A DNA stretch of 61,040 nt, filler included. It is 13 parts of 13 records of this genome, joined end to end, with 100 filler letters (N's around TTAATTAATTAA, not from the genome) between each part and the next. Parts side by side here need not be neighbours in the genome. Positions count along the whole stretch, not along the records: positions 1 to 6,651 come from SRR15195285_4489; 12 more parts are not named here. One strand, written 5' to 3'. The notes beneath the pieces were generated by a model. It was not told the origin of the DNA. It searched no databases and saw only the letters and a list, made by a program, of their open reading frames with translations. Positions 1-40,480 of the stretch are shown in pieces. Within the stretch, counting starts at the first letter, position 1. The number at the start of each line of letters is the position of its first letter. The translations under genes were made by a program, and so were the position numbers.

Positions 1-27
1 AGCAGCAGCAGCAGCAGCAGCAGCAGC
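1..27 (+). repeat. (AGC)9 trinucleotide microsatellite at contig start
   Basis: agcagc... run read directly; a contig break at a simple repeat. Confidence 0.95.
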
Positions 28-73
28 GAGCTAGCTGGGGTCCGTCCAGCGTCCAGGCTACAAACTTGGATTC

Positions 74-1979
74 ATGCACACAGTAGACTGGATTTTGAAT
101 ATACCTGAACGCCGATTTTTAGCATCGACTGCACTCGCCGCTGCTGACGATGCTGCGTCGCAGGGCCGCCCTGCACTGGACTGGGGCTCCCTGCCCGGGT
201 TGGATCCAGCTGCGGACGCCCTGCTGAAAACGGATCGAGCCCAACGGAAGCGCGAGCAACTCGAATCGTTGCTGCACCTCTTGCAGGTGCACATCCTGCC
301 ACATCTGACTCAGGATGATCGCAACACCCAGCGTCCGCTACGTTTTGTCGACTTTGCGTGCGGCAGCGGCCACTTCGGCTTGCTCGTTGCTTCGCAAGTT
401 CCGGGTAGTCAGGTTGCACTGGTTGACATGCAGGACCACGGTCTAGAGAAAGCGCGCGATCGTGCTGAGAGTCTCGGAATCGCGTCGCGAGTGACCACCT
501 GTGCGTTGCCTTCTGACATTTACCACTGTGGGCTTCAGTCTCACGTAAGCATTGGTGCAGGGTGCGGGTCCATCGGCGACTATCAGGACGACTTTGACTG
601 CGCGCTTGGTTTACATAGCTGTGGATCTCTTACCGACCTCATACTAGCCCAGGTAAAGCCTCCGTGCGTGTCATATTGTGCCTTTGGTCGACTGACTGCA
701 CACCTGTCACTTGGACAGGCTGTCAGTCGCCGCGCTGCATTCTGCGTCGCGCCATGCTGCTGTAAGTTGCGTCATTGTAGTTGTACAGTATAACAAGCGC
801 ACGCACTTGCAGCAACGTCATGCTGCTAATTTGCACTCATGTTCCACGCTGCTCTGCAACAGATGGCAGGCTTCTAGCTCCACAGTCAGAAGCATTTTGT
901 GCAGAGTCCAGGTGACTATACTAGTACGAATTTTTTACTCTCGTGCACACCTCCGACCAACTTCACAGTCATCATCATTTTATCCGTACTTTGGCACTGA
1001 GAACACACGCTGTACGAGGGCAGGTGGCTTGGAGGTGAGGAATTTCTGCGGCTTGCACGCGCGGCAGAGCACCATGACGAGCAGCCTCAGCCTGAGGTAG
1101 AGCAGCAAGAGCCGGAGGCAGAGCAGCCGCGGCAACGTGTGCGAATCTGCGTGTTTGCAGAGCCAGAGCTACGTGCAGGCCTTACTGAACAGGGAGTGGA
1201 ATGGGTTGGTGGCGTAGAGCTAATGGACGCCATCCTAGCGGTGCGTGAATCATTAGCTGGCCATTATTTTGTGTACGATCATGTTGTTCATAGATCTGAC
1301 CTCGCAATGCAGGGGGACATCAGGGTGCCGTTGGAGTCAAGCAACGAGTCAGACGGGGTAAAGGCGGTTTGCGAATTTCGCGTCTTAGCATCACCAGCAA
1401 TGCTACCCATGCTCGGCACCAAGCTGGGCAGACTTCTTGGTAAGTTTGCAGTGTAATCTATAACGCAGTATGCTGCAGCAGTACTTGTACTCGCACTTCG
1501 TCTGTGGGATGCTAGTCTAGTACGGTCAGTGGATTGAATACCAGTTGATGATGATGGACGCGTGTTTCAAACGGTGACTGACAGGTCCCAGAAAGCTGAT
1601 GCCGCATCCGAGAGTGGGTACAGTTACTACTGACCTGGCTGGCGCAGTGCATGCTGCTTTGATGTCTTCACAGACAACGGATCGCAAGGAACTGGGCAGG
1701 ACGCTCGCACGGCGGGCAATGTTTGCACTGGACTGTGACCGTGCCTTGCTATTGGCACAACCTGAGCGAGGCGGCGGCTACAATTCGCGGCTTGCACGGC
1801 TCACGCCGCTGAGCTGTTCGCCCAAACACAATGTCTTGCTCGGTTGGCCTGCTGTCACGAAAGCAACCGAACCGCTCCTCAATACTACGTCACAGCGACA
1901 ACAACAGCTTGTGGTCGGTGCAGACAGAGCAACACGCGGTGCAGTGGTAGTGTGGGACAGGCCTGGCACAGACTGCTAA
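74..1979 (+). CDS. GSTCD-like SAM methyltransferase with an inserted ribosomal uL1-like segment; 7 exons; 5' end may be incomplete
   Basis: GT-AG introns at 501-560, 653-718, 762-862, 912-1023, 1241-1312 and 1440-1584 give one continuous frame. Motifs RAQRKREQL, VDFACGSGHFG, LGLHSCGSLTD, APCCYG, LDCDRA and CSPKHNVLLG match the GSTCD methyltransferase domain. The insert [32 protein letters not shown] matches uL1. Confidence 0.8.
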
Positions 1980-2111
1980 AAAATATGGACTGTTGGCGGG
2001 CAGTTAAGCGGTGATTGAAAACTACATTTGTTGCACACTCGCTCAGTCATGTGGCACTACGACCCATGTGCCACGTTGCGCCGCTCGTACCACAAATCGG
2101 TCTGAGCTCGT

Positions 2112-3392
2112 CTACTTCAGCTTCACTGTCGCCCACGTTGCAGCGCCACTTGCCACTGCTGCTACTGCTGCACCGACCTCTGCGCTACCTCCAACCTCGC
2201 TTGCACCGCCGCCCTGCTCCTTCAAGGCTGCGTGGAAGTTCTCGACGGTCATGGCTGCCTTCTCCTCCTCGGAGGCCGTGATGATGGATTTTACCCTTTC
2301 GATGATTGCATGAATCGACGTTTCATCGTCGTCCGTCGCCTCGATAGAGCAGTGAACTGTGCAGTGTTTTTTCACCTGCAACAGAACACCGTGCCGCGGT
2401 GAGGTCCAGCCAGAATAGGAGAGAACACCGCAGGAGCATCAGTGCGAGCGATCCACGGCTGCGGTCGTGAGGAGAGAAAGGCAGTCTCACCGTGTCCTCA
2501 ACCTTTTCCTCGAGGGATGTGAGCTTGCCGCGCTTCACTGCACCGACTGCGCTACCGCTCCACCAGATGTAGACAAACTTAGTCAACATGGCCCCTGGCG
2601 TCTTGAACTGCAGCCGCAACATGGCCGCGCACACCGTAGTTGGTGCGAATGCGCGGCGCATCTCCTCGATCGAGCCTGCCCCCTCGTCTGTCGGGTACGG
2701 GTTCTTGTCAGCAGCAAGCGCGACCCAGTTAATGTCTCCGTCCACGTCGGCAATACGCTTGAGTGTTTCACTCAAGGGCATGAACTTGTCCAGCGCATCT
2801 GCCTTCGCCTTTGCGATGGCATCTTCAGCCGCATGCTTTGCGCCGGCGCTGGAGAAACCCTGAAGACCATCGTCTGCAAACTTTTCGTGGAGTGCAGCGT
2901 CGATGGCTGCGCTGCTGACAGCCGCAGCGTCCTCGGCGTTGATCTCGAGATGTGGCTCGACCCCAAGAAGTTCGATCACTTCGTCCTTCCGCGCGATAGC
3001 TCTCCCCTTCTTGACGATCCCCACGCCTGCGCCGACCATCTGTGACCAAGCAATGGACCCGCTGAGGGCAGGCACGTGACAAGTGTGTCGGATCTGTTTC
3101 TGCTTCGGAAGCTGGAGCACACCTGGATAAACACGAACTTGTGCGACTGAGCGCCGAACTTCTGCCGCAGTATCGTGAATGTCACCGCGTCATCTGGGAT
3201 CGCAGCGGCCATCTCGTCGGTGCTTCCAGCACCCGAGCTGACCAGCTGCAGCTGCAGCCCTCCACCGGCGCCCATCGACTTGCCCGGGCCGACATCCTCC
3301 AGGCCAACCTCATCATCCTGCCCCCGCGACAAGCAGCAGTACGCCGTCGCAGCCACACCCGCCGCACCGATCGCGATGGCCTTGTTGTCCAT
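2112..3392 (-). CDS. Tandem ADF-H (coactosin-like) actin-binding protein with N-terminal hydrophobic anchor; 3 exons
   Basis: Introns at 3122-3040 and 2490-2376. Two repeats: GAGSTDEM..KFVFIQMVGAGVGIVKKGR and GAGSIEEM..KFVYIWWSGSAVGAVKRGK. N-terminus AIAIGAAGVAATAYCCL. Confidence 0.75.
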
Positions 3393-4554
3393 GGTAGAAC
3401 TCCTATGAACAGAGTAGCTGCCTCCAGAGCGCCACCACCACCACCACCACCGCCACGGTGTAATTGAGAACGTTGACAGTTGGAGTTGCGCGGACGGAAA
3501 TGCGAGGTGACGTCAACGCACTACGCCGTAGTATAATAGAGAGCACGCGGCCGCGCACGGACAATCGACAATATATATGGTATTGTATTGTGTACCTGTA
3601 CCCGAGTGTGAGCGTTCTAAAATGCGTACGGTAGCCGCCGTACGGGGTTCGTATCCGCGTCTGTCTGTCTGCGCGCTTGGGTCGATTGACCTGAGGTGCT
3701 CCTCAATTCGATTCAAGTTTCAACGGCATCTTTGTTTTTCTTTCCGGACAAGCCCGAAGCGAAGAAGGGGAGAGGAGGTGTACCGGTACTGTACTATCAA
3801 TGTTGTAATTGGTGGAGATGGCGAGGCGCCCGCAGTGGTCGCCGGTTTCGCTGGCGCACTGAGCAAGGGGGACCCCCACCCGGCAGCTAGCTGTGTCAGG
3901 GGGGGCTAGGGGAAGGACGTTACGGTGTAGTATAAGGAATTAAGGATGTAGGACCTTAGAGGGCCAGAGCAGCTGCTCCGGTCCGGCCTCGCTCGAACGG
4001 CCCTCCAGCTGCCGCGAGCTGGGGCAGCAAAGTTTTTTTCATGCCGTTCCTTGCCGAATACATTTTCTTATATTGCACCCGTGTACTGGTGGGATTTCTG
4101 CCCTTTTAAATGTGGTCCTAAAAATAATGTGGTCCATGAATCAAAGTGAAAAGAAGAAAATGTGTCCAATAATATTGTGCACGTAACTTCCGCAAGCGAC
4201 ACGCGATGGACACTTTGCTGGGCTCGCCATTGCTAGCCCACATGTATGTAGTTTGCCGACGCACCACCGCAGGCCGGAGGCAAAAGCAGCCACTGCCCCA
4301 AGACTAGAGACTGGCCGAAGGAGCCGAACGCATGAACGAAAGCTCTGCGATGTTCAAAGTCAAAGAACAGTACCTCAGGACTTCCGCTTGGCCTTCGAGG
4401 CGGACGCACGCCGCCCCGATGGCGACGGCGGGTCCGGGCTTGGGCTCGGCCCCGATCTCCGCGGCGAAACGCGCCCGCCGCCGGCCGCCGGCGCTACCTT
4501 TAAACTGACCTTGTGCGCCACCGCCCGCCTGCGGCTGCAACCGCAAATCACCTG

Positions 4555-6412
4555 TCATCTCAGCAAAAAGCTCTGGAAAAAGTTGAGTTGCGGAGTTGTT
4601 TGTGACAAATACCTGGTGGCGCGATGGTTGTTGCGCTGGTAGTCCGGCAAGGTGTCTGGAACCATAAGCAATATATTAGAGAGAAGATCTACATGCCCCG
4701 CACAAAGCAACGGCTTGCGCGTGAGCGTTGGGCCAGAATGGGTGTGGATGAACGCACGGGCGATACGCGTGATGACCTCAGTGATGAAGGGCACGTCCAC
4801 AATCTTCAGCATAAACCGCAAGCCAATCGGGTACCAGCCCTAGTCGATTTTAGAGACAAATACAAGAGATCAGAGAAATGTCAGAGAAACCAGAGAGATG
4901 CATGAGAGAAGCGCGAAATGAGAGAACTGTCACCTGGTCGAGGATGACGATCCGCCCGAGTGATGCAAACGTCGCCTCAGCGATCTTCTCGGGTGAGCAG
5001 GCAGTCTTCTTGAAAAAGTCCATCGCGTCAATCGTATGCGTCACAGTCTTGCTGTCTGGAACCACAAGCCACAATCGGTCAGCTAAGTGGTCGGCCCAAA
5101 AAGAGCCGAAAGCTGCACAAGCCGAAGCTGTCAAAGCAAGCCGAAACGTCTCAAGCCACAGTAAAGCCCGTAGATTGCTCGCGTACTGCGGAGAGATCAG
5201 ATGTGTACTGCACAGAGACGCATTGCTGCGAACAGACACGTTGCTGCGAAGAGACAGCTTGTGGTGCGTACCGTAGAAATTCGAATCCGTGGGTGACGGG
5301 TGAACCACGCAGACGTCGATCCCATGCGACTTGATCTCTGGCGCGATGGACGCCCCGAACTCCGACAGAAACGCCTTCGTCGAGCCGTACATGGACGTGA
5401 ACGGCGTCGCCATGAATGAAGCCGGCGACGACGTGAACGCCACCCCGCCGGGTCTCCCCTCGGCCTGCATCCGGCCGATGAAGTGGTGGGTGATCTCGAC
5501 CGCCGCTGTTGCATTGCAGTGCAGGTTCGCGAGGTGCGTGTGGATCGGCATCGACGTGAAGAAACCTATCATCAGAGAGAGAGATGCGAGAGTGAGGCGA
5601 AGGCGGAGGAGAACGTGAAGAGAAGGTGAGGATGAGATCAGGATTACCCGTGAGGATATAGCCAGCGTTTGAGAACACCAGCTGAATAGGGAGATCATCT
5701 GTCGCGGCTCGGATCGAGTCCATGTACGCTCCAGGCGTGGATAGATCTACGCCGACCGCGACGAACCTATCGCCCACAATCGGTCAGAAACAATCTCCGG
5801 ACATTGCGATGGGCGGAGGGCTCTCACTTGACGCCCGCGATCCAGAAGCGGTTCCGGAGCTCGAGCACTGCAAACACGCCCCAACCTGTCAGAAAATAGA
5901 GCTACAGTACACATCCCAACGGCAGATTGCGAGGGGCTTACTTGTGGCGTCGAGCGTGGCATCTGGGGCAGCTACAATTACGATATTGATGCCCTGATCT
6001 GCGAGCATCACCGCCATGGCCTTGCCAATGCCGCTGGAACCCCCTGCAGCACAGATGATCAGCGACATGAACTGGCCAGAGCCCCTGAGCCAGCGGCGGC
6101 GGCAGCAGACAGCACGGAGACAGGCTAGGTTGCGCACCTGTGACCACAGCCCACTCAGCGCCGTACTTGCGCCGGAAGTTCTGTGACTTCCAGCTGTGTG
6201 ATGTGACGCGTCCAATCGCACGGTGAGAAGCAGTGCCGCGCGGGCTGGCGGCTGGCTGTGCTGCCGGACTGGCTGGGCAGAGCGGGGCGTGCTGCTACGT
6301 ACAACCAGCTGGCGACGATTGGGGCGAGGTACGTAAAAGTCATGGTGAAGAGCGAGCCCCAGAAGGAGTAGTATCCGAACCATGCGACCCAGCCCCACGC
6401 CTCGGTCAGCAT
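4555..6412 (-). CDS. Membrane-anchored short-chain dehydrogenase/reductase, KCR/17-beta-HSD12-like; multi-exon; 3' end approximate
   Basis: Spliced YGAEWAVVTGGSSGIGKA (introns 6302-6194 and 6137-6044), FSNAGY, SS..MYGSTKAF catalytic YxxxK, and a hydrophobic N-terminus. Confidence 0.85.
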
Positions 6413-6651
6413 GCTGTTGCAGACGTCCGCGACGTCGAACGCGACGCGGGTCGTGGACGCGGCCTCGCGCGCGGATCCCGCGCGCGCGCGCCGGTCGTCG
6501 TCGCGGTGCGCGCATGCGAGGGTTTCTTCCGCCCGAGTCGCAGATTTAAGGGCGGACGTAGCAGTACTAGCACAGACCCGCGCCAGCACGGCGGAATAAA
6601 GTTGCACTGTAAGGGGGTACTGTACAGTCTGTACAAAATAGTTAATCTCGT

Positions 6652-7924: not shown

Positions 7925-9229
7925 TCATCTTCTCTCAGCCACAACATAGAGGAACCATGCTTCACATGTGGCACTTCTTTCGTCTGACGTCACGTCCATT
8001 TCCATGCTCAGGCTCATACTAACATCTTTCTCCTTCACCATTGCAACCAGTTCAAACATCGCAGCTTCTCCTCCTGTACCGTCTATACCACCTCTTCGCT
8101 GGCTAGCGCTGGTTGTGCTGCCGCCTGCGATGTGCGCGCAGGGTCCATCGACAAGCCGACGGTGAGAGCCGGGCTCGGTTCGAGCCTTCGTCACCAAATC
8201 GACCAGCTCAGCCCAACTGAAGTCATGCTGGTGTCCTGTGCACATTGCGATGCTTTCGTGGGGCGATATCGAAGCACCTGCAAACTCTGCGGGAGGTTCA
8301 GCTTCCTCGCCTTGCTCAGTTAAAACTGGCGATGGCGACCGGGCTCGGGATACAGCTGCGGCTGGCACGTTTTCCTGCAGCAGCTTTTGCTGCGTGTATG
8401 CCTCCGCCAGGCTGTACGAGTGTTCCTCACCCGTCTGTTCCTTTCCATGCTCATAGAGCGCAGAGTAGAGCGCGGGATTGAGATCGTGAGAAACGGCAGA
8501 AGCGGAGAGCATTAGCTTCCCACCTGGCCGCAGTTGACTGTGGCATGCGTGTATCAGCGCGGTGCGATCGCTCGGCGTCCCGACCACAGATACAACCAGC
8601 TGTGCCAATACAAAGTCGAAACCAAAACCACTGTTCTTGTCGACGTTGCCAGCATCACCGATGTCGTTATATCGGACTAACCCAGCGTCCACTGCTGCTG
8701 CGAGAGACTTGACAGATCGGCAATCACCGACCACAAACACGGCGCTACCACCATCGGTATCGACCTTGCCGTCGTCACCACTGCTGCTGCCACCTGCCGC
8801 CGACGCAGCTCGTGGGTGCAGCTGGGCAGCGGCAGCGGCAGCGTTGGCTGCAGCAACCGCGGCTTCATTCACATCCACCCCCACCACGTCACAGCCACAG
8901 CTGCGCGCCAGTTCGATCGCAACGCGGCCGTCCCCACAGCCCACGTCGAGCACCCACCGCCGGCGTCGCTGCTGTGCATGAGTCCCGTCACCGGCTCCAG
9001 ACCCGCCACCGTGCTGTCCGTCCGCTAGCGCCCCTGTGTTGTATCGCTCCACCACGTATCGGTGTGATTGTGGCTCGAGCAGCGAGGTGAAGGATCGGTG
9101 GACGTGGCGCTGAGTCGGGATGCGAAGCTGATGGGACGAACCCGGGGCCCCCACTGACCACCAATCAGCGCGGAACCGGCGGCTCTCTGCTGGCAGTGCA
9201 GCCGCTGACGATCCCGCGGGCTCCGCCAT
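7925..9229 (-). CDS. Class I SAM-dependent methyltransferase
   Basis: VLDVGCGDGR motif I, VVGVDVN motif II, FDFVLA, LRPGGKLML. Start placed at MAEPAG. Confidence 0.8.
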   Translation of the reverse strand: MAEPAGSSAAALPAESRRFRADWWSVGAPGSSHQLRIPTQRHVHRSFTSLLEPQSHRYVVERYNTGALADGQHGGGSGAGDGTHAQQRRRRWVLDVGCGDGRVAIELARSCGCDVVGVDVNEAAVAAANAAAAAAQLHPRAASAAGGSSSGDDGKVDTDGGSAVFVVGDCRSVKSLAAAVDAGLVRYNDIGDAGNVDKNSGFGFDFVLAQLVVSVVGTPSDRTALIHACHSQLRPGGKLMLSASAVSHDLNPALYSALYEHGKEQTGEEHSYSLAEAYTQQKLLQENVPAAAVSRARSPSPVLTEQGEEAEPPAEFAGASISPHESIAMCTGHQHDFSWAELVDLVTKARTEPGSHRRLVDGPCAHIAGGSTTSASQRRGGIDGTGGEAAMFELVAMVKEKDVSMSLSMEMDVTSDERSATCEAWFLYVVAERR

Positions 9230-10689
9230 TGCTCGACGCCGGCCGCCAGACGCTGTCCGGGCTCGTCGCGTCGTCGGTTCGAGTCGCAAGCTCGTGCACC
9301 TGCGTGCTGCTGCGTGCCTAGCACGCAAGCGCACCAGAAGAGACGACTCGCGCGCGCGTGCGCACGCGGTGTACATTCGATACATCGGTACCGTGGAGAA
9401 GGCTGCAGTGCCCAGGTTGTCAATTTGGCGATTGAGCAATTTGCTGCAAGCGCGTGCAACAGAACTCAACCGGTGCCGCCGGTGGAAAACCAGAAGACTT
9501 GAGCAGATGAGCACCGTCGGCCGGGAGCGATGCGAGGTGATGAACTGATGATATGGTGCCACGCCTGATCGACGACGTCGACAGCGAGCCGCCTGCCTCT
9601 GCCTCTGCCGCCCGTTGCTGATCGCCAGGGAGGGGGGCATTGAGTCGATCCGTGAGTGCTGGGACCCTTCAGCTCTCTGTGTGGGTGGCGTCAAGATACT
9701 ACTCTAGAGGCAGCGAAAGGATTTTGTGGCACAACTTGTGTGCTATCGGCCGTACTGTCCCACGCTGTGGTTCGACGCCGCAGAGACTACGGNNNNNNNN
9801 NNNNNNNNNNNNNNNNNNNNNNNNNNNNNNNNNNNNTTAATTAATTAANNNNNNNNNNNNNNNNNNNNNNNNNNNNNNNNNNNNNNNNNNNNAAAACGCA
9901 ACCCCTACTGGCAGCCCTATCACTGATGCCGCGATCGACTCGGTGCAGACTGGCACTCGGGGATCCAGTCATCCAGCGGTCCGCATCAAATCTGAGAAAT
10001 CACGGCTACAGTAGGATCCTACTATGTACTAGTATTAATAGTAGCTAGTCGATCGGTCAGCAGCGAGGGTCGCGTGATCATCAGGGTGGTGAATGAGCAT
10101 GAGCACGTGCACGCCCGCACCCTCCCGCAGGGCGCAGGCCCTCCCCGCTCCCCGCTCCCGGGGTGGGCAAAATTGAAAATACATCCAGTCGCGTCGGGTT
10201 GTGCCCATACCCGGAAAAAAAGGCCTGTCTCAGAAGGAACGAAAACCTTACCTGTTACCACGGTGGTAAGGTTTTTGAAGACCTTCAGGGGGGTCACAAA
10301 CCGACTGGATCCATGACTGGATCCTCGGACGACTGTATCACATTGTACTGACCCGCGGTAGAGGCAAGGCCTCGGATGTCGCCGTTGTCCCGGATCGCCG
10401 CGCGCATCGCCGACCACGCACCCCGACGCACGGGCAGCACAGTGTACACTGCGTGCTGGTCGAGAGTCGCAAACACAGGCGGCGCGCGCGAAGAGGTACC
10501 GACACAGCGAGCTGCGGCCGCCGGTGCTGGGCACAACGACGACGCTCGCGCCGCCGAACCGGCGCTGGCTGCGTGGCAGGCAGGCGCACGCAGGCAGGTC
10601 GAGGCGGCGAGCTGATGGACATGACTCCCTCGCGGCGGCGACCGATATGGCGGCGCTTGCATTGCGTTCACCGTGGATTGCTGGCGGCG

Positions 10690-33513: not shown

Positions 33514-33732
33514 GGCTGAGGCTGAGGAGCTACTAGCTAGTAGATCGCTCTTAGTACGTAGTAGTGCGTTTCCTGTGTGTGTACCCTGTACCGCACGCAT
33601 TCCACGTCCCTGTTAAAACACCGATGACTGAANNNNNNNNNNNNNNNNNNNNNNNNNNNNNNNNNNNNNNNNNNNNTTAATTAATTAANNNNNNNNNNNN
33701 NNNNNNNNNNNNNNNNNNNNNNNNNNNNNNNN

Positions 33733-36700
33733 GTAACCGTACAGCCACTTGTAGTCGCTGAAGCCGTAGGTAGTAAAACCAGTAATGCGCGAGCCAGTAC
33801 CACCTTGTGAGCGCTCGCCAAAGGGAAACCGGTGAATATTGCCAGAGGTGTAGCTGCCACCGTGCTTGTTTCTCTGCACGAATCCTTCCACAGCTGCGCT
33901 TGTGAAATTATCAGTCCGTATCATATTGTCCAAGGTGTCTTCCGTCTCAACGTAATGGTGAAGATCGGCAAGCGTGTGTTGGAGCCCAGTGCTGGCGTCG
34001 ACAGCTGAGCCGCCTGATGTTTTGTCATTGTGTGCATAAAGGTACACATACTGCGGAATATTCCAGTCTTCTGTTGTAAATCTGTAGGTAGCGTCGCGTT
34101 GCCAGCCACCGCACGTTTGCAGGTATCCGTCCATGTCCCACTTGTTATAGACAAGCTCGTTAATGGGCGATCCGTCCTTTGCATTAAAGGGGAAGCGGTT
34201 GTGGAGGTCTGACGGAGGGACGTTTCCTCCTCCCCAGGGCGCCTGACCAGGGCACGAGAGGGGCTTAACCAAGTCCACGTACATGTTCTGGGTTACAGTT
34301 ACGTCGACCCAATAGTTTTCTTCAGACTCCACGCTTCCACACTCGTACGGACGCGTCAAGTCGGAATAGTCATCAAACTCGCAAAGTCCCAGGTCATTGA
34401 TAGGCTTGTTTGGATTTGTACCCGCCTGGCGCTGGACCTTCCGAGGTTCCGTATCCAGTTTAATGGTATAGTAACCGAACGTTGCGCCCTCAACGACATT
34501 GATGGAAATGGGGTCATGCGTCATGATATTGACGTTGTCTGTTGGTTCTTGTCTCAGTGTATCCGTAGTGGAAGCACCTGACTCTATCGTCACACCAGCG
34601 TAGTCGTTGTCTTTGGTGTGAATTGTTCGAATATGGTGGCGGAACGGCGTGTGGACGTCGTTCCTGCCGCCACATGTCTGATCCGGTGTCAGGAACTCCT
34701 CACACGCATACCCACCATGTCCGCCCTCCTCCAGGGTTTCATTTGCCGCGATAAGCTGATCCATTGTCATGGGAATGTACATATCTCCAACGAATTCTTG
34801 AACCTGGTAGGAATTGGTGTACGACCAGTATGTGTCACCATAATGGCTCTGTGTGATCGTGAACGACGTGAAATCGATCATCACCCCTGCGCGCTCATCT
34901 ACCAGATCGTCAACTGGGACGACCTTGATGGTCACCGGCTCATCCCATCGGTGTGTATCCTTTCCTTCTGCTTGCCCCCCGGTGTGGGTGAATGTGACAG
35001 AGGGTGGGTCGAATGTTGTTTGAGGTGTCGCGTCGGGGGTCACGACAATGAGAACGAGCTCCTCTTCGACGACCAGGATGGGCTCACCCAGATACTGCCG
35101 CTGCACGTGCTTAGTTCCTGGCGACGAGTTAAGTCGAATCTGGAATGAACCATAGTGACAGTCCGTATTCGTAGGATTTTCGTACAAGTTGGAAGTTATT
35201 GTTCCTTGGCCGTAACCAGCCTCTTCTGGGTCACCAGCCACCCATCCTCCCTGGAATGTGTCGACAATGCTATCAACAGCTTCAGACGCACCCCAGAAAG
35301 CACGTGAGTCACCCTTGACGTCACCGCGACATTCCATCGTGTGAATTGTGCACGCGAACTCGTCCTCTGGCTCAGTGAAGGCCGGCCCGATGCCCTTGAA
35401 CCCACGATTTGGTTGAGGGCTGATGGCACGGGAGTCAACGCCAGGAGTACATGCTTTGTAGCCATCCACGCTGCGATGCTGAACCGGCTGTCCGACAGGT
35501 GTGCAGTCATCGAAGGTATTTCGTATCGACGCAGGGTCCACGTCATACGGCAACCCACCAGAGGTGTACCTGTCCCAGTAAGGATCGTAATTCGTCCATG
35601 GGCGGTTGTCGATTCGGAAACACCTGTCCGACTTGCCGTTCTTTACATTCGGGTCATCGCCGAAGCAGGCAGGGTGGTCCGGATCGGTAATGTACCCGTT
35701 GCCAGAAGCACCAGCTTCTCCACGCAAGCCCCCGCCGCCAATCCCGTCATCATGGACCTGAAAACCACCTGCACTGGCCCAGTACTGCCCAGGGACGTAA
35801 GTACACGTTGCGATGTTGGAATCGGTTTCAGTGCACGAGCCAGGAGTAACGCCGAAGTCAGTCGATTCGCTCAACTGGCAATTCGTTGAGTCAAAAGCTG
35901 TGGCAGTTGCAACCAGTGTCGAAGTACAGCTGTCTGCGCTGTCCTCCTGGTCCGGCGTGCCGTCTTGATCAGAGTCTGAATATGTTCCATCAACATAGGC
36001 ACATGTGGCAACAGTACTATCAACAGCGGCGCACGACCCAGGCGTGTCACCATAGTCGCCAGTCGGGGTCAGCACACAATTGGTTGTGTCAGTAGTTGTG
36101 ACAGTAGGAACCAGTGTTGATGTGCAACTGTCTAGACGAATAACTGTGTCCAGAGACCCACTCGTTACACTGCGGCCTTGGAAGCCACTGCCCGAGATCC
36201 CATCCTCGGCGTATGCGCCAGCACGATCAAACTCATGGTACCAGTAGTTGACCCTGGGCGGAACCGCTTCAGTGTATTCACACCCACTAGGACATTCGGC
36301 AGTACCGTCAGTGTTTGCGTCGATGTCACACGTCGGTGTGTGCTCGGCTACAAAGGCACACCCGTCTGCACAGCCTGGTGGGTCTGTGCTACTGTCTAGT
36401 GCGCACGACTGTGATGAATCTGTCGGTGCGCCAGTACAGGAAGCGGAGACGATACTGGCTGTACCTGTGCAGGTAGCCGGTTCGGCATCCTGGACTTGCC
36501 TACGTTGCTGAGCACGTCGACGGCCAGCGCTGGCCTGGGTGTATGTGCATGCTTGCTGCGCGTTGTCAGAGTTTTTCATAACTGCATCGCACTCACTCGA
36601 GTCAGACAGATCAGTAACAGCATCGCATGCTGCAGCATCTGTTTCATCGGCTGAATCTCCGGTTGCTGTCTCAACGCAATCATACGTGGCCTGCGAGTCG

Positions 36701-39700
36701 CTGCTCTGCTGATTCTGATTCTGGAAGTCCATTCGATCGTATGTGTACCCATTCCAGTTCGTCCAATCAGTTGTCACTACACCAGCCGCCTCATAGGAAC
36801 CGATAAACTCCTCGTCAATCGACTGGGGATCTCCACCTTCCGACAGGTAGCTTCCATCACAAATGACAACCAAGTCTGCGATATCGTCATCAACAACCAC
36901 AACGTCGATTGAGGTCACGTTCATGCCAGTAAATTGGTGGTCCTCAAGACAAGGTTGGTCAGTATTGTGATTGTTCCCAGTGCAAGGACCGACAGTGTGA
37001 TAGATTGTGCGAAGTTCGGTCGGTTCGTCAACATCATCGTTCAGCGCAATCACAGTGATTCTGCGCGGAACGTTCCAGTCTTTGTCGGTGAACATCACAT
37101 CTAGGTCCGTGCTTCCCCTGGGCACTGGGATGTTATTGCCATCCAACGGCACATTATGAATGAAACAGCCGCTGTTAACCCACGCAGAGCCGGGATATTT
37201 TTCTCCGACACAATGTTCTTGCGACACCTCGTTGCGGTATGACGCTTCCTCGTAAAAAAAGAGCTCGTGGTCACGATATGTCGATGCTGCGAGATCTTCG
37301 CGTACGTGAACGACTACAGTTGTTCCCTCCAGCGGTGCACGGTCCAGCACGATCGTGTACGGACAAACTGGTGCTGTCATGCCCGCATATTCTGTGTTGG
37401 CATCATCTATCATAGTCCATCCGTCACCATGGAGCGACGCACAGGACACGTCAGCGCCGTCCTGTTCCCAGAAAAGGGCGTCATACTTGGGGTTGCTCGC
37501 GGACACAGTATTGTCGTCCAGGCTGCCTTGTATAGTGCCAAAAGTAGCCAGGTCTGGCGCATACCCAGCGGCATCGACAGCGGCGTCGAGTGTTTTGTAC
37601 TCCCCAGCGAAAAGACCTAGAGTCATGGACATCGGAGCGCCATTTGCGTACGTACAACCTGCAGGGCACAACGCAGTACCATCTGTGATGGAGTCTAGGT
37701 CGCATGTCAAGTTGACGTCATCGGCATTGCCGGTGCACGTAGCAGGACCGACAGCTGTCCCGTCGGCAAGGCAGCTGGACGGCGTCATCTCGCCTCGAAA
37801 ACGATCAAACCAGAACCTGCGCCCTTCTGTGGCTTCACAATGTCCACGAGAAATGGTGATACCTCGAGTGTCATCGTCCACTACCACAGTTTTTGCCGAG
37901 CAACCGATGCCGCGGTGCGTGTACTTGTCTGGTGCAAACTGCACCACCTGCAGCGCGTCCTCGGCTCCGCCCGGATTGGCAGCGCTGGTAGGGGTCCCGT
38001 CATCAAGCTCACAGCAACAAACTTGATTGGCTGCGTCGTTAACATGATAAGCAGAAGAACGGTCTGCAACAATCCCTGTCGTAGCTGGGGTGAACACGCA
38101 GCCGCTCGGACAAGTTGTCGACGGAGTGGCCGCGTCACCCGCCACGTAGTCAGTGGAGCAGTCCGCAACAGTCGGTGTGCAAGTTTCAGAGTCACCATCG
38201 CCAGCAAGCGTGCATGCAGAGGGGCACGATGTAGAAGGATTGCCAGCAGTCCCCGGGACGTAGCCATCACACGAGGCAACCTCGCACGTTTCATCTGTAG
38301 GAGTCACAGGGATCTCGGCAAGATACGTGCAGGCACCCGCATCTGTGCAAGTCGCAGCGTTGCCATCCAACAGTACTCCAGATTCTTCATGCTGCATGCG
38401 CGTTCTACATGCAGCTGCAGCTGTCGCTACGCAAGACTCTGGGTCTGCCGTGTACGTGCAGGCGCCCGCAGCAGTGCATGTCGCTTCAGTTCCGTCCAAA
38501 GCAACTGCCGCACACACAGCTGCATCTGTTGCTTCACAAGTTTCTGGCGTCGCAATCGCCCGCAATAGCCCCAGGTCATCTTCAGTTGCGATGCGCGGAT
38601 AGCGATTTATGTGGCGACCAAAGCGTGTATCGAACATGCTCAGATCGACCGTAAAATCTGCTAGTTGAGCGTCGACGTACGGACGATACGCGGAGTTGGT
38701 CGCCATCATGAGCCGAGCTCCTGGTGAGTTGTAGTACCAATCGATGCTCTCATACAAAAATCCGATTGAACTGGTACGATTCCGACCTTCGTCCGTGTTG
38801 TCGTCGACAGCAATCACCTCAAGGGCTTGCCACGTGTTCCAGTTCGTAGTCGAGAACGTGACATACGAGTTGCACGAGAACCCTGAGGTGGGTAGGATGG
38901 ACTCGACACCGTCCTTGTTGTAAAATCGAACTGTGATGAAGTCACCGTCCTTCCGGCAGCCGTGAACGGCCTCGGGAGAGTCGCAAGCAACCGCCCTGCA
39001 CGTCTCCCTTGTAAGCGTATCACGGTTGCTGGTGTACTCAAGGAATTGAGTTTGCGACGACGCATCGAACAGATCCTGGCGATCCCATCGATCTTGCAGG
39101 TCTACCGTGCCTTCGAAACATCCCCGTGTCGGATAGTTTCCGATCTGACCTGCGCCTGGAAAACTGGGGGGCACAATGCCTTCCTCCGGCGTGCGCTCCA
39201 CTGTACTACCGGAGCTGAAGCAAGTGTCGAACTGAGCCTTGTCCTGGAAAATTACCTGCTCATCGTCAGGCTGCATGTTGCAGTACGTGGAATCACAAGT
39301 TGGCTCCTCGCCGGGAGTAAAAAATGGACCACTCTGCAGATATACAGTCACTGGGTACGTCGGTTCACTGGCTAAGCGAAGTTTGATCTCCGAATTGTCT
39401 GAGCCCTCGATTGGTTGAGCAGTGTGTACGTTCTCGATCACTACGGCAGGGTCGTTGTCGGCGATGCTCACCGTCACGTCGTTTACCTCGATGTCATCGT
39501 AGTACGTATGCTCGAGATTGATATCTTGAGCGACGACGAAATGGTGCACGTACGAATCCTGCCCGCGGCGATTCACCTCTGGCTCGTACACGTCATCGTC
39601 TCGTGCCATGAGTGTGACAGTCTGTGGGACCTGCCAGTTGGTGCTGTCGAACACCAGCTGGGCAGCGGATGAAAGATCTCCGCGCCACGTGGAGCCACAT

Positions 39701-40002
39701 TGGACTGCCGTGTGGTCCCCTGACGTGGGCAACTCGCAGCTCCAGTTCGGTTGCAAGAAGTTCGGGGCCTCTGGCTGCTGGTCGCCGCCATTGAGCACCA
39801 GTTCTGGGCAGTTCGCGTATCGGCACACGGCGTCCGGATCCGTGCGCGTGCGTAGGACCTGGTTGCCGACAACGTCTATGCGATAGTCCGAGCTGCCCGA
39901 GACCGTATCGGCCAGCGGCACAGGGCTGCCATACGACCAGGCAGGTCCGTCCTGATGACCACCGCCAGTCTCCACAGGTACCACGCCATCATACACGGTC
40001 AT
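33733..40002 (-). CDS. Fragment of a giant acidic extracellular protein with Calx-beta/Ig-like repeats and Cys-rich repeats; likely truncated at both ends
   Basis: Intronless ORF of about 2090 aa. Five repeats of F-x-x-x-[ND]-W-x-x-P-Q-x-V-x-x-x-A-x-D-D type (FDSTNWQVPQ, FSTTNWNTWQ, FTDKDWNVPR, RWDEPVT, FTTEDWNIPQ). Confidence 0.85.
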
Positions 40003-40480
40003 ACCTACAGGCTTTCAGCGACTACAAGTGGCTGTACGGTTACNNNNNNNNNNNNNNNNNNNNNNNNNNNNNNNNNNNNNNNNNNNNTTAATTAATTAAN
40101 NNNNNNNNNNNNNNNNNNNNNNNNNNNNNNNNNNNNNNNNNNNGCACGAGATAGAGTATAAGAATAATCACGTAAATGATGACAACAATAGGGTTATCAT
40201 AGGGTTGGGCACTCAGAGTTGCTAAACTGCTGAGTGCCCTCGCCGCCCGGTGGCGTACGCTCCAGACGACTGACGTGCAATCTGCACTAATTCTTCTTGA
40301 GGATTGTTGGGAAATGCACGGTAGAGATTTGTTTGGTGCAAATTCAATGTAAACGTCGAATCCTCGCTCGCGTGAGGACCAGCAGCACACAACATACCCA
40401 TTGGCGCTAGCTACCGTACAACGGCTACGATTGCACCATTTGCAGTATCAGACCACTCTAACGCGAATTGCTATTCATCG

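Follow-up and report, generated by a model that had tools for sequence, protein, structure and literature searches.

Why should part of a ribosomal protein be encoded in the middle of a methyltransferase gene, and what might it do there? This question is raised by a gene at positions 74-1979 (plus strand) of the window, by which we mean the whole stretch of DNA that was analysed (61,040 nucleotides, filler included). The gene lies within sequence SRR15195285_4489, which makes up window positions 1-6,651, and its seven exons and six GT..AG introns give a single open frame of 449 codons. A preliminary description of this locus had proposed that a subdomain of ribosomal protein uL1 is spliced into a GSTCD-like methyltransferase. 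Our analysis establishes with high confidence that the protein has a bacterial-type uL1 domain II nested in a methyltransferase of the Methyltransf_32 family. The more complete explanation that we favour, with moderate confidence, is that this is a real gene whose nested uL1 domain II is under selection and would, more tentatively, serve as an accessory part for an RNA substrate.

A uL1 domain II is nested in the methyltransferase

Relative to the insert-less homologues P0005, P0020 and P0159, the window protein carries approximately 120 additional residues (about 231-354) between a helix that ends with 'ARAAEH' and a helix that starts with 'LARRAM' (in 'LARRAM..LDCDRA'). The motifs flanking the insert had been described as adjacent in homologous methyltransferases. 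They are not strictly so, as about 20 residues separate them in the nearest homologues that lack the insert, but the insert does lie between them. It is composed of an acidic linker of 21 residues, a uL1-like domain of 103 residues (residues 242-344; window 1136-1240, 1313-1439 and 1585-1661) and a second linker of 14 residues. In an AlphaFold model of P0005 (predicted local distance difference test score, pLDDT, of 81; predicted template modelling score, pTM, of 0.82) the insertion site corresponds to residues 275-288, a loop with pLDDT <50 that lies between helices 260-269 and 291-310. By this model the site is predicted to be a surface loop of the helical segment beyond the fifth strand. 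Other homologues have long unrelated inserts at the equivalent site, some of them of low complexity, indicating that the site is tolerant of insertions.

Taken one at a time, the exons of the insert resemble uL1 only weakly. Single exons match the Pfam family Ribosomal_L1 (PF00687) with 15.0 bits (profile positions 41-82) and 13.2 bits (positions 113-139), which are colinear but each below the gathering cut-off of 32.2 bits. We therefore considered whether the likeness might have arisen by chance, or because a generic Rossmann-like segment had converged on uL1, as the E values of the single-exon matches to Pfam and the Protein Data Bank (PDB) are no better than 0.018-0.25. Joining the exons makes this explanation exceedingly improbable. 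Against a profile built locally from uL1 proteins of gamma- and beta-proteobacteria (81 sequences, 231 positions, search space set to the Pfam size of Z=24736), the spliced protein scores 43.3 bits (E 3.8e-11) over positions 72-157, and the 103-residue domain alone scores 47.0 bits while the maximum among 1000 shuffled versions is 3.0 bits. In pairwise BLASTP the domain is at best 41% identical to bacterial uL1 (102 columns, 67 bits, uL1 residues 73-156), and it is 36% identical (51 bits) to E. coli uL1. Furthermore, the match is colinear, crosses a splice site and stops exactly at the limits of domain II (72-157).

The origin of the domain from a bacterial-type uL1 is indicated by several observations. 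Sequence matches in the PDB, searched exon by exon, fall on uL1 residues 75-109, 118-135 and 133-158, with no match for the 42-residue exon used alone. Exon 7 matches 15 chains, 12 of which bear the name 50S L1 or uL1, in entries that we take to be bacterial ribosomes, and no chain named L10a is present among the exon 7 matches at E up to 10. The domain also retains the signature LG..LGPR..MP.P..GTVT, in which '..MP.P..GTVT' is the bacterial-type form and differs from that of eukaryotic cytosolic uL1. When the domain is compared with the 81 proteins of the local profile and with 33 further Pseudomonadota loci, every one of them is 36-42% identical to it, over uL1 residues 73-156.

The identity of the insert as domain II follows from the limits of the match. 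Domain II spans residues 70-160 in Thermus uL1 (PMC3602588), and a construct that deletes it joins Gly67 to Gly159 (PMC2175363). The profile match at positions 72-157 coincides with these published limits. Domain II has a Rossmann-like fold with four parallel strands (PMC5689012), and in uL1 it is itself inserted into domain I, with the hinge chains only ~4 A apart (PMC2175363). As a natural insert with closely spaced ends, it could be accommodated in a loop with the fold of the host left undisturbed. Domain I was not found; the profile match is confined to positions 72-157, and the uL1 profile gives 25.5 and 3.8 bits for the two open reading frames (ORFs) of this gene as compared with 3.3 bits for the best ORF elsewhere in the window. 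Thus, the protein is not a uL1 but contains a uL1-derived subdomain, and unlike bacterial-type uL1 it is without domain I and hence without the known L1-stalk binding surface. The nested version also differs from domain II of uL1 in having an extra loop of ~16 residues between the second helix and the third strand, and in being flanked by linkers inside an enzyme.

The insert is spliced into the methyltransferase transcript

Evidence that the insert is part of the mature transcript comes from four metatranscriptome runs (marine/seawater) that were aligned to the window, two of which, X2 and X3, belong to separate studies. Removal of intron 6 is observed in one contig from each of X2 and X3 (>=99% identity), which skip 145 bases with GT..AG ends at a joint of 1438/1584, which brings the two halves of the uL1 signature together. 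The X2 contig continues to position 1751, which is beyond the methyltransferase motif 'LDCDRA'. For intron 5, an X2 contig aligned up to 1241 has a loose end of 13 letters that reproduce the beginning of exon 6 (1313) exactly. For intron 4, the alignment of an X3 contig starts at 1021, and the 20 letters ahead of it match the end of exon 4 (863-911) with 2 mismatches. Consequently, all three introns that flank or interrupt the insert are removed in these contigs, and the insert is bridged on both sides to methyltransferase exons. The RNA check proposed in the preliminary description, at 912/1023 and 1440/1584, therefore came out in its favour, with both joints seen in metatranscriptome contigs.

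These data bear directly on whether the gene is an artefact produced by an assembly chimera, a wrong gene model or the merging of two adjacent genes. In favour of an artefact, the protein collection has no annotated spliced protein that bears the insert, and the whole transcript is spanned by no single contig or read. The contigs from two studies nonetheless bridge exons 4-5, 5-6 and 6-7 and reach the C-terminal motif of the methyltransferase, the uL1 tail and the methyltransferase C-terminus share one exon, and an independent metagenome contig described below (L001) is laid out alike. An artefact of any of these kinds is thus very improbable.

Some features of the RNA data do weigh against a single spliced product. 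Contigs of run X1 (95-99% identical, covering window 151-1255) align colinearly to the genome, crossing introns 2 and 4 and entering introns 3 and 5. All four insertions or deletions in these contigs (5, 1, 6 and 6 nucleotides) are intronic and substitutions occur in both introns and exons. The X1 contigs probably represent a related strain, sequenced either as library DNA or as unspliced RNA. Additionally, intron 5 is 72 nucleotides long, in frame and free of stop codons, and a gene call in the protein collection (P0161) reads through it. Retention of this intron would merely add 24 residues within the uL1-like domain, so that an isoform with intron 5 retained may exist. Contigs are also unable to reveal rare isoforms that skip the insert. 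Positions 1-150, 405-541, 1256-1349 and 1752-2029 are left uncovered by the contigs of the four runs, which says nothing either way about these intervals.

The architecture is maintained in a small clade

The same arrangement is present in related sequences. Metagenome contig L001 (1045 nucleotides) shares with the window the middle exon of the uL1-like domain and the last exon, the latter 72% identical in protein, and between them has an intron whose codon position and phase also agree. The intron itself has diverged, with 184 nucleotides in L001 versus 145 in the window and 83 of 186 aligned intron columns identical. The earlier suggestion that the fusion is not a fresh artefact is borne out by this comparison, inasmuch as a relative at a synonymous divergence (dS) of about 0.7 has intron 1440-1584 in an unchanged position and phase. 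Exon 7 matches six entries of the protein collection, which are its own ORF and five others at 98, 86, 85, 70 and 68% identity. All five others, which are gene calls from genomic contigs that start at an internal Met, begin within the uL1 tail and extend into the C-terminus of the methyltransferase. L001 and these five database fragments indicate that the architecture, for which a search of related genomes had been suggested, is common to a small clade of uncultured marine eukaryotes. We also observe that two pairs of gene calls, P0003/P0167 (contigs of 3888 nucleotides) and P0002/P0174 (4203 nucleotides), each comprise an N-terminal methyltransferase fragment and a C-terminal fragment with the uL1 tail. 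These pairs may be the two ends of one gene in two relatives.

Outside of this clade the insert was not detected. None of 150 representative homologues reached 5 bits on the local uL1 profile (best 4.9), and Pfam Ribosomal_L1 matched none of 129 homologues at E 1e-5. When window 1025-1438 was used as query against the longer proteins of the collection there was no match, and window 1313-1438 matched just the unspliced ORF of this gene, P0161. Among article listings on GSTCD, on Methyltransf_32/METTL25/RRNAD1 and on L1-domain proteins, we found no paper on a uL1-methyltransferase fusion. The domain combination is new, is assembled from two known families and is restricted to one lineage.

Comparison of the window with L001 by the Nei-Gojobori method provides a measure of selection, expressed as the ratio of nonsynonymous to synonymous divergence (dN/dS). 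The uL1 core (..VLASP to GTVT, 35 codons) has a dN/dS of 0.089 at a dS of 0.77, and the C-terminal core of the methyltransferase (48 codons) has a dN/dS of 0.096 at a dS of 0.41. The linker (14 codons; dN/dS 0.45, dS 0.70) and the tail (42 codons; dN/dS 0.27, dS 1.37) have higher ratios. Judged from these substitution patterns, the uL1 core is under purifying selection as is the core of the enzyme.

This result addresses the view that a fragment of a uL1 gene landed in an insertion-tolerant loop and has stayed there as a neutral passenger with no function. Such a view would be in line with the disorder of this loop in the model of P0005, with the unrelated low-complexity inserts at the equivalent site of other homologues, and with the differences between the window and L001 in the variable loop and in the helix after GTVT, which include a deletion of 4 residues. 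It is nevertheless a quite unlikely explanation as dN/dS is about the same in the uL1 core, at a dS of 0.77, and in the enzyme core, the reading frame and both internal splice sites have been kept, and the uL1 tail is retained in all five relatives down to 68% identity.

Regarding the origin of the insert, its borders lie inside exons 5 and 7 and not at introns, so simple exon shuffling does not account for it. The two internal introns either arrived with a genomic donor fragment or were gained later. The donor was probably a host gene for an organellar uL1.

The host enzyme belongs to the Methyltransf_32 family

The protein into which domain II is inserted is a predicted and apparently intact class I S-adenosylmethionine (SAM) methyltransferase of the Methyltransf_32 family. 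Window 74-652 alone matches the Pfam profile of this family (PF13679) with 44 bits (E 2.9e-11), which is above the cut-off of 27 bits. An exhaustive profile-free search identified 496 homologues at E <=0.001, the nearest full-length one being P0005 (371 residues, 50% identity over 296 aligned positions), and all 129 scanned homologues of 230-700 residues match Methyltransf_32. Only two relatives carry names, these being a hypothetical protein of Nannochloropsis gaditana (EWM26370.1) and a gene model of Amoebophrya.

Alignment of the 129 homologues (P0005 numbering) indicates that H213 and C215 are invariant while C238 and C239 are conserved in >=90%. The window protein has VDFACGSGH, LHSCG and PCCY at the aligned places, and thus keeps the His-x-Cys-Gly and Pro-Cys-Cys motifs as well as the C-terminal 'SPK[NH]' hairpin. 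The pattern of conservation suggests that this set of one His and three Cys forms a metal site or supplies catalytic thiols; to our knowledge it has not been described. The Pfam match, SAM motif I and the three features just named are shared with other Methyltransf_32 proteins, including GSTCD, METTL25, METTL25B/RRNAD1 and members from algae and protists. The window protein differs from these in being ~120 residues longer at a loop that has ~20 residues in its closest homologues.

How well the term GSTCD-like fits depends on the part of the protein concerned. For the methyltransferase domain it is fair, since structural neighbours of P0005 in the Atlas are clusters named GSTCD, with template modelling scores of 0.63-0.65 normalised by query. 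It does not extend to a GST domain, which unlike in animal GSTCD was not found, with no GST family among the Pfam matches of window 74-652 at E up to 1 for a protein whose N-terminus may be incomplete. The family as a whole includes GSTCD and METTL25/METTL25B and is distantly like TRM13. Matches to TRM13 in 26 of the 129 homologues reflect this distant family relation and not membership of the window gene in TRM13, as the TRM13 profile (PF05206) has no match on the exons of the window gene at E up to 1. Searching the PDB with the sequence of P0005 returned no close solved structure, with generic methyltransferases alone being matched at E 0.013 or worse.

What might the nested domain do?

We propose, tentatively, that the insert is a selected accessory module that helps the enzyme to hold or position an RNA substrate. 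In this proposal the substrate would be the elbow of a tRNA or a loop of rRNA, and contact would be made through the retained basic loop (..KLGRLL-G followed by PRKLMPHPR..). Sequence-specific binding of the L1 stalk is set aside because it requires domain I. The best-conserved loop of the window domain contains two arginines located five residues apart, which we presume, on the basis of this spacing, to correspond to Arg130 and Arg135 of Thermus uL1. In a Thermus 70S complex, Arg135 of domain II reaches into the groove of helix 77 and Arg130 contacts A2169 and G19 of tRNA (PMC3602588).

The host family provides further grounds for considering RNA. Among the 129 homologues, RNA-linked Pfam matches (E 1e-5) were obtained for TRM13 (26), Methyltransf_4 (15, best E 5e-47), R3H (5) and zf-TRM13_CCCH (2). 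One homologue, P0032, has Methyltransf_32 fused to a tRNA U5-methyltransferase that is C-terminal, and the Atlas contains clusters with R3H or an RRM name. This recurrence of RNA-linked domains favours an accessory role that involves RNA. The window protein is like the Methyltransf_32 proteins with R3H, TRM13 zinc finger, TrmA-like or TrmB-like domains in that it too is joined to an RNA-linked accessory domain. In those proteins, by contrast, the accessories are read as separate Pfam domains (their position is known for P0032 only) and none derives from a ribosomal protein. A second parallel is found in Utp30, Cic1 and RSL1D1, which likewise reuse the uL1 fold away from its ribosomal site, with domain II of Utp30 touching RNA via a basic surface (PMC5689012). 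Those proteins are free-standing assembly factors that keep both domains and are not enzymes (PMC5689012), whereas the window protein has only a domain II, of bacterial type, nested in an enzyme.

Several observations weigh against a role in RNA binding. The specific RNA binder of uL1 is domain I and not domain II (PMC2175363), and most contacts of uL1 with E-site tRNA come from domain I, with domain II contributing two loop arginines (PMC3602588). The uL1-like domain of the window is about neutral (net charge -1) and the adjoining linker has a net charge of -6. A fold search with the model of P0005 returned generic class I methyltransferases only and gave no hint of a substrate. Additionally, no experimentally shown substrate of any Methyltransf_32 member was found in the literature covered, where the rRNA role of METTL25B is a Gene Ontology inference (PMC8662637).

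For these reasons we considered that the nested domain II is real and selected but has a role unrelated to RNA, acting in protein docking, as a lid on the active site or, together with the acidic linker, as a regulatory or autoinhibitory element. In many class I methyltransferases the helical segment beyond the fifth strand, where the insertion is located, forms a substrate cap. This location, the charges of the domain and linker, and the fact that specific RNA binding by uL1 does not reside in domain II would all be consistent with such a role. On the other side, conservation is strongest in the basic loop and signature (dN/dS 0.089), the equivalent region of Thermus uL1 supplies the contacts of domain II to rRNA and to G19 of tRNA (PMC3602588), and the host family repeatedly has RNA-linked domains. 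On balance we rank the accessory role in RNA binding first, and the role unrelated to RNA, which we regard as rather unlikely, next. A more specific version of the RNA-related proposal is that the enzyme is an RNA methyltransferase that recognises its substrate through the exapted domain II. The basic loop, which in the ribosome contacts helix 77 and the elbow of tRNA, would then let the enzyme dock on tRNA elbows or on L1-stalk-like rRNA. We hold this version to be distinctly doubtful.

Exon-intron structure and surroundings of the gene

The six canonical introns in one frame that had been reported for this gene are confirmed, with 653-718, 762-862, 912-1023, 1241-1312 and 1440-1584 as previously implied and the sixth now set at 501-560. 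Exon 1 (74-500) starts at the first in-frame ATG after a stop at 32-34 and encodes a conserved N-terminal helix 'LPGLDPA..RKR.QL' and the SAM motif I VDFACGSGH. Intron 1 (501-560, 60 nucleotides, GT..AG, phase 1) is positioned from homology alone, with 0 RNA contigs across it; this location was chosen because the spacing at 'SRVTT.C....Y' then equals that of close homologues. A first guess at 491-538 was dropped as 501-560 restores the length of the homologues. Exon 2 (561-652) contains the motif 'FDCALGLHSCGSLTD' with the family-invariant His and Cys. It is followed by intron 2 (653-718, 66 nucleotides, GT..AG), which is colinear with P0005 and has a 5-nucleotide insertion in the X1 contig, by exon 3 (719-761; 'AVSRRAAFCVAPCC') and by intron 3 (762-862, 101 nucleotides, GT..AG). 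Exon 4 (863-911), which matches the loose end of the X3 contig, encodes the end of 'PCCY' and then 'GRLLAPQSEAFCAES', and intron 4 (912-1023, 112 nucleotides, GT..AG) has two 6-nucleotide deletions in the X1 contig.

The insert begins within exon 5 (1024-1240), which encodes a methyltransferase helix ending in EEFLRLARAAEH up to 1072, the acidic linker (1073-1135) and the start of the uL1-like domain (1136-1240), where a first strand, a helix, a second strand and a helix occur in this order. Intron 5 (1241-1312, 72 nucleotides, GT..AG) separates it from exon 6 (1313-1439), which contains the middle of the uL1-like domain including the variable loop and is conserved in L001 at 237-363. Intron 6 (1440-1584, 145 nucleotides, GT..AG, phase 1) interrupts the uL1 signature and has its counterpart at 364-547 of L001. 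The first part of exon 7 (1585-1661), found in all five database relatives, completes the uL1-like domain and finishes in a helix. The remainder (1662-1979) contains a short linker (1662-1703), the C-terminal methyltransferase helix 'LARRAMFALDCDRA' (1704-1745), the final two strands with 'SCSPKHNVLLGW' and a variable tail that ends at a TAA stop codon (1977-1979). All of these exons and introns are on the plus strand.

The true 5' end of the gene is less certain. The start of the window is a CAG repeat followed by the stop in the frame of the gene, and the N-termini of the relatives P0002, P0004 and P0006 share a conserved stretch, 'MHRRREKRRE..', with no counterpart encoded in the window. 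On these grounds a 5' exon may lie upstream of the window. A possible splice acceptor is present at 121-122.

The surroundings of the gene are gene-dense and of a eukaryotic nuclear type, with a GC content of 0.52-0.59 in the window, and other genes in the window include those for cofilin, a JmjC protein, a protein kinase and EF-hand proteins. The source is an uncultured marine microbial eukaryote, and the gene is a real and transcribed nuclear gene. The neighbouring gene on the opposite strand (2112-3400, minus strand) has a cofilin/ADF domain (28 bits) in an open stretch of 288 residues and is apparently split by introns. A second and unrelated SAM methyltransferase ORF of 592 residues (7928-9703, minus strand; Methyltransf_25/23/12/11) is located 6 kb downstream. 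Furthermore, an open frame of 2109 residues (33688-40014, minus strand) has no Pfam match at E 1e-5.

Implications for the Methyltransf_32 family

Reuse of a ribosomal protein domain by an enzyme is uncommon, and in this case only the naturally insert-like half of uL1 has been taken and placed in a loop of another fold. The gene is therefore a clean natural example of domain grafting that selection has preserved in one clade of uncultured marine eukaryotes. The architecture is limited to this small clade and its functional role is a proposal only. The known partners of the module are rRNA and tRNA only, and it thus provides a concrete hypothesis for the Methyltransf_32 family, whose human members include GSTCD, METTL25 and METTL25B. 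If domain II does act as an exapted recognition module, then it would offer an initial clue to what enzymes of the GSTCD/METTL25 family act on.

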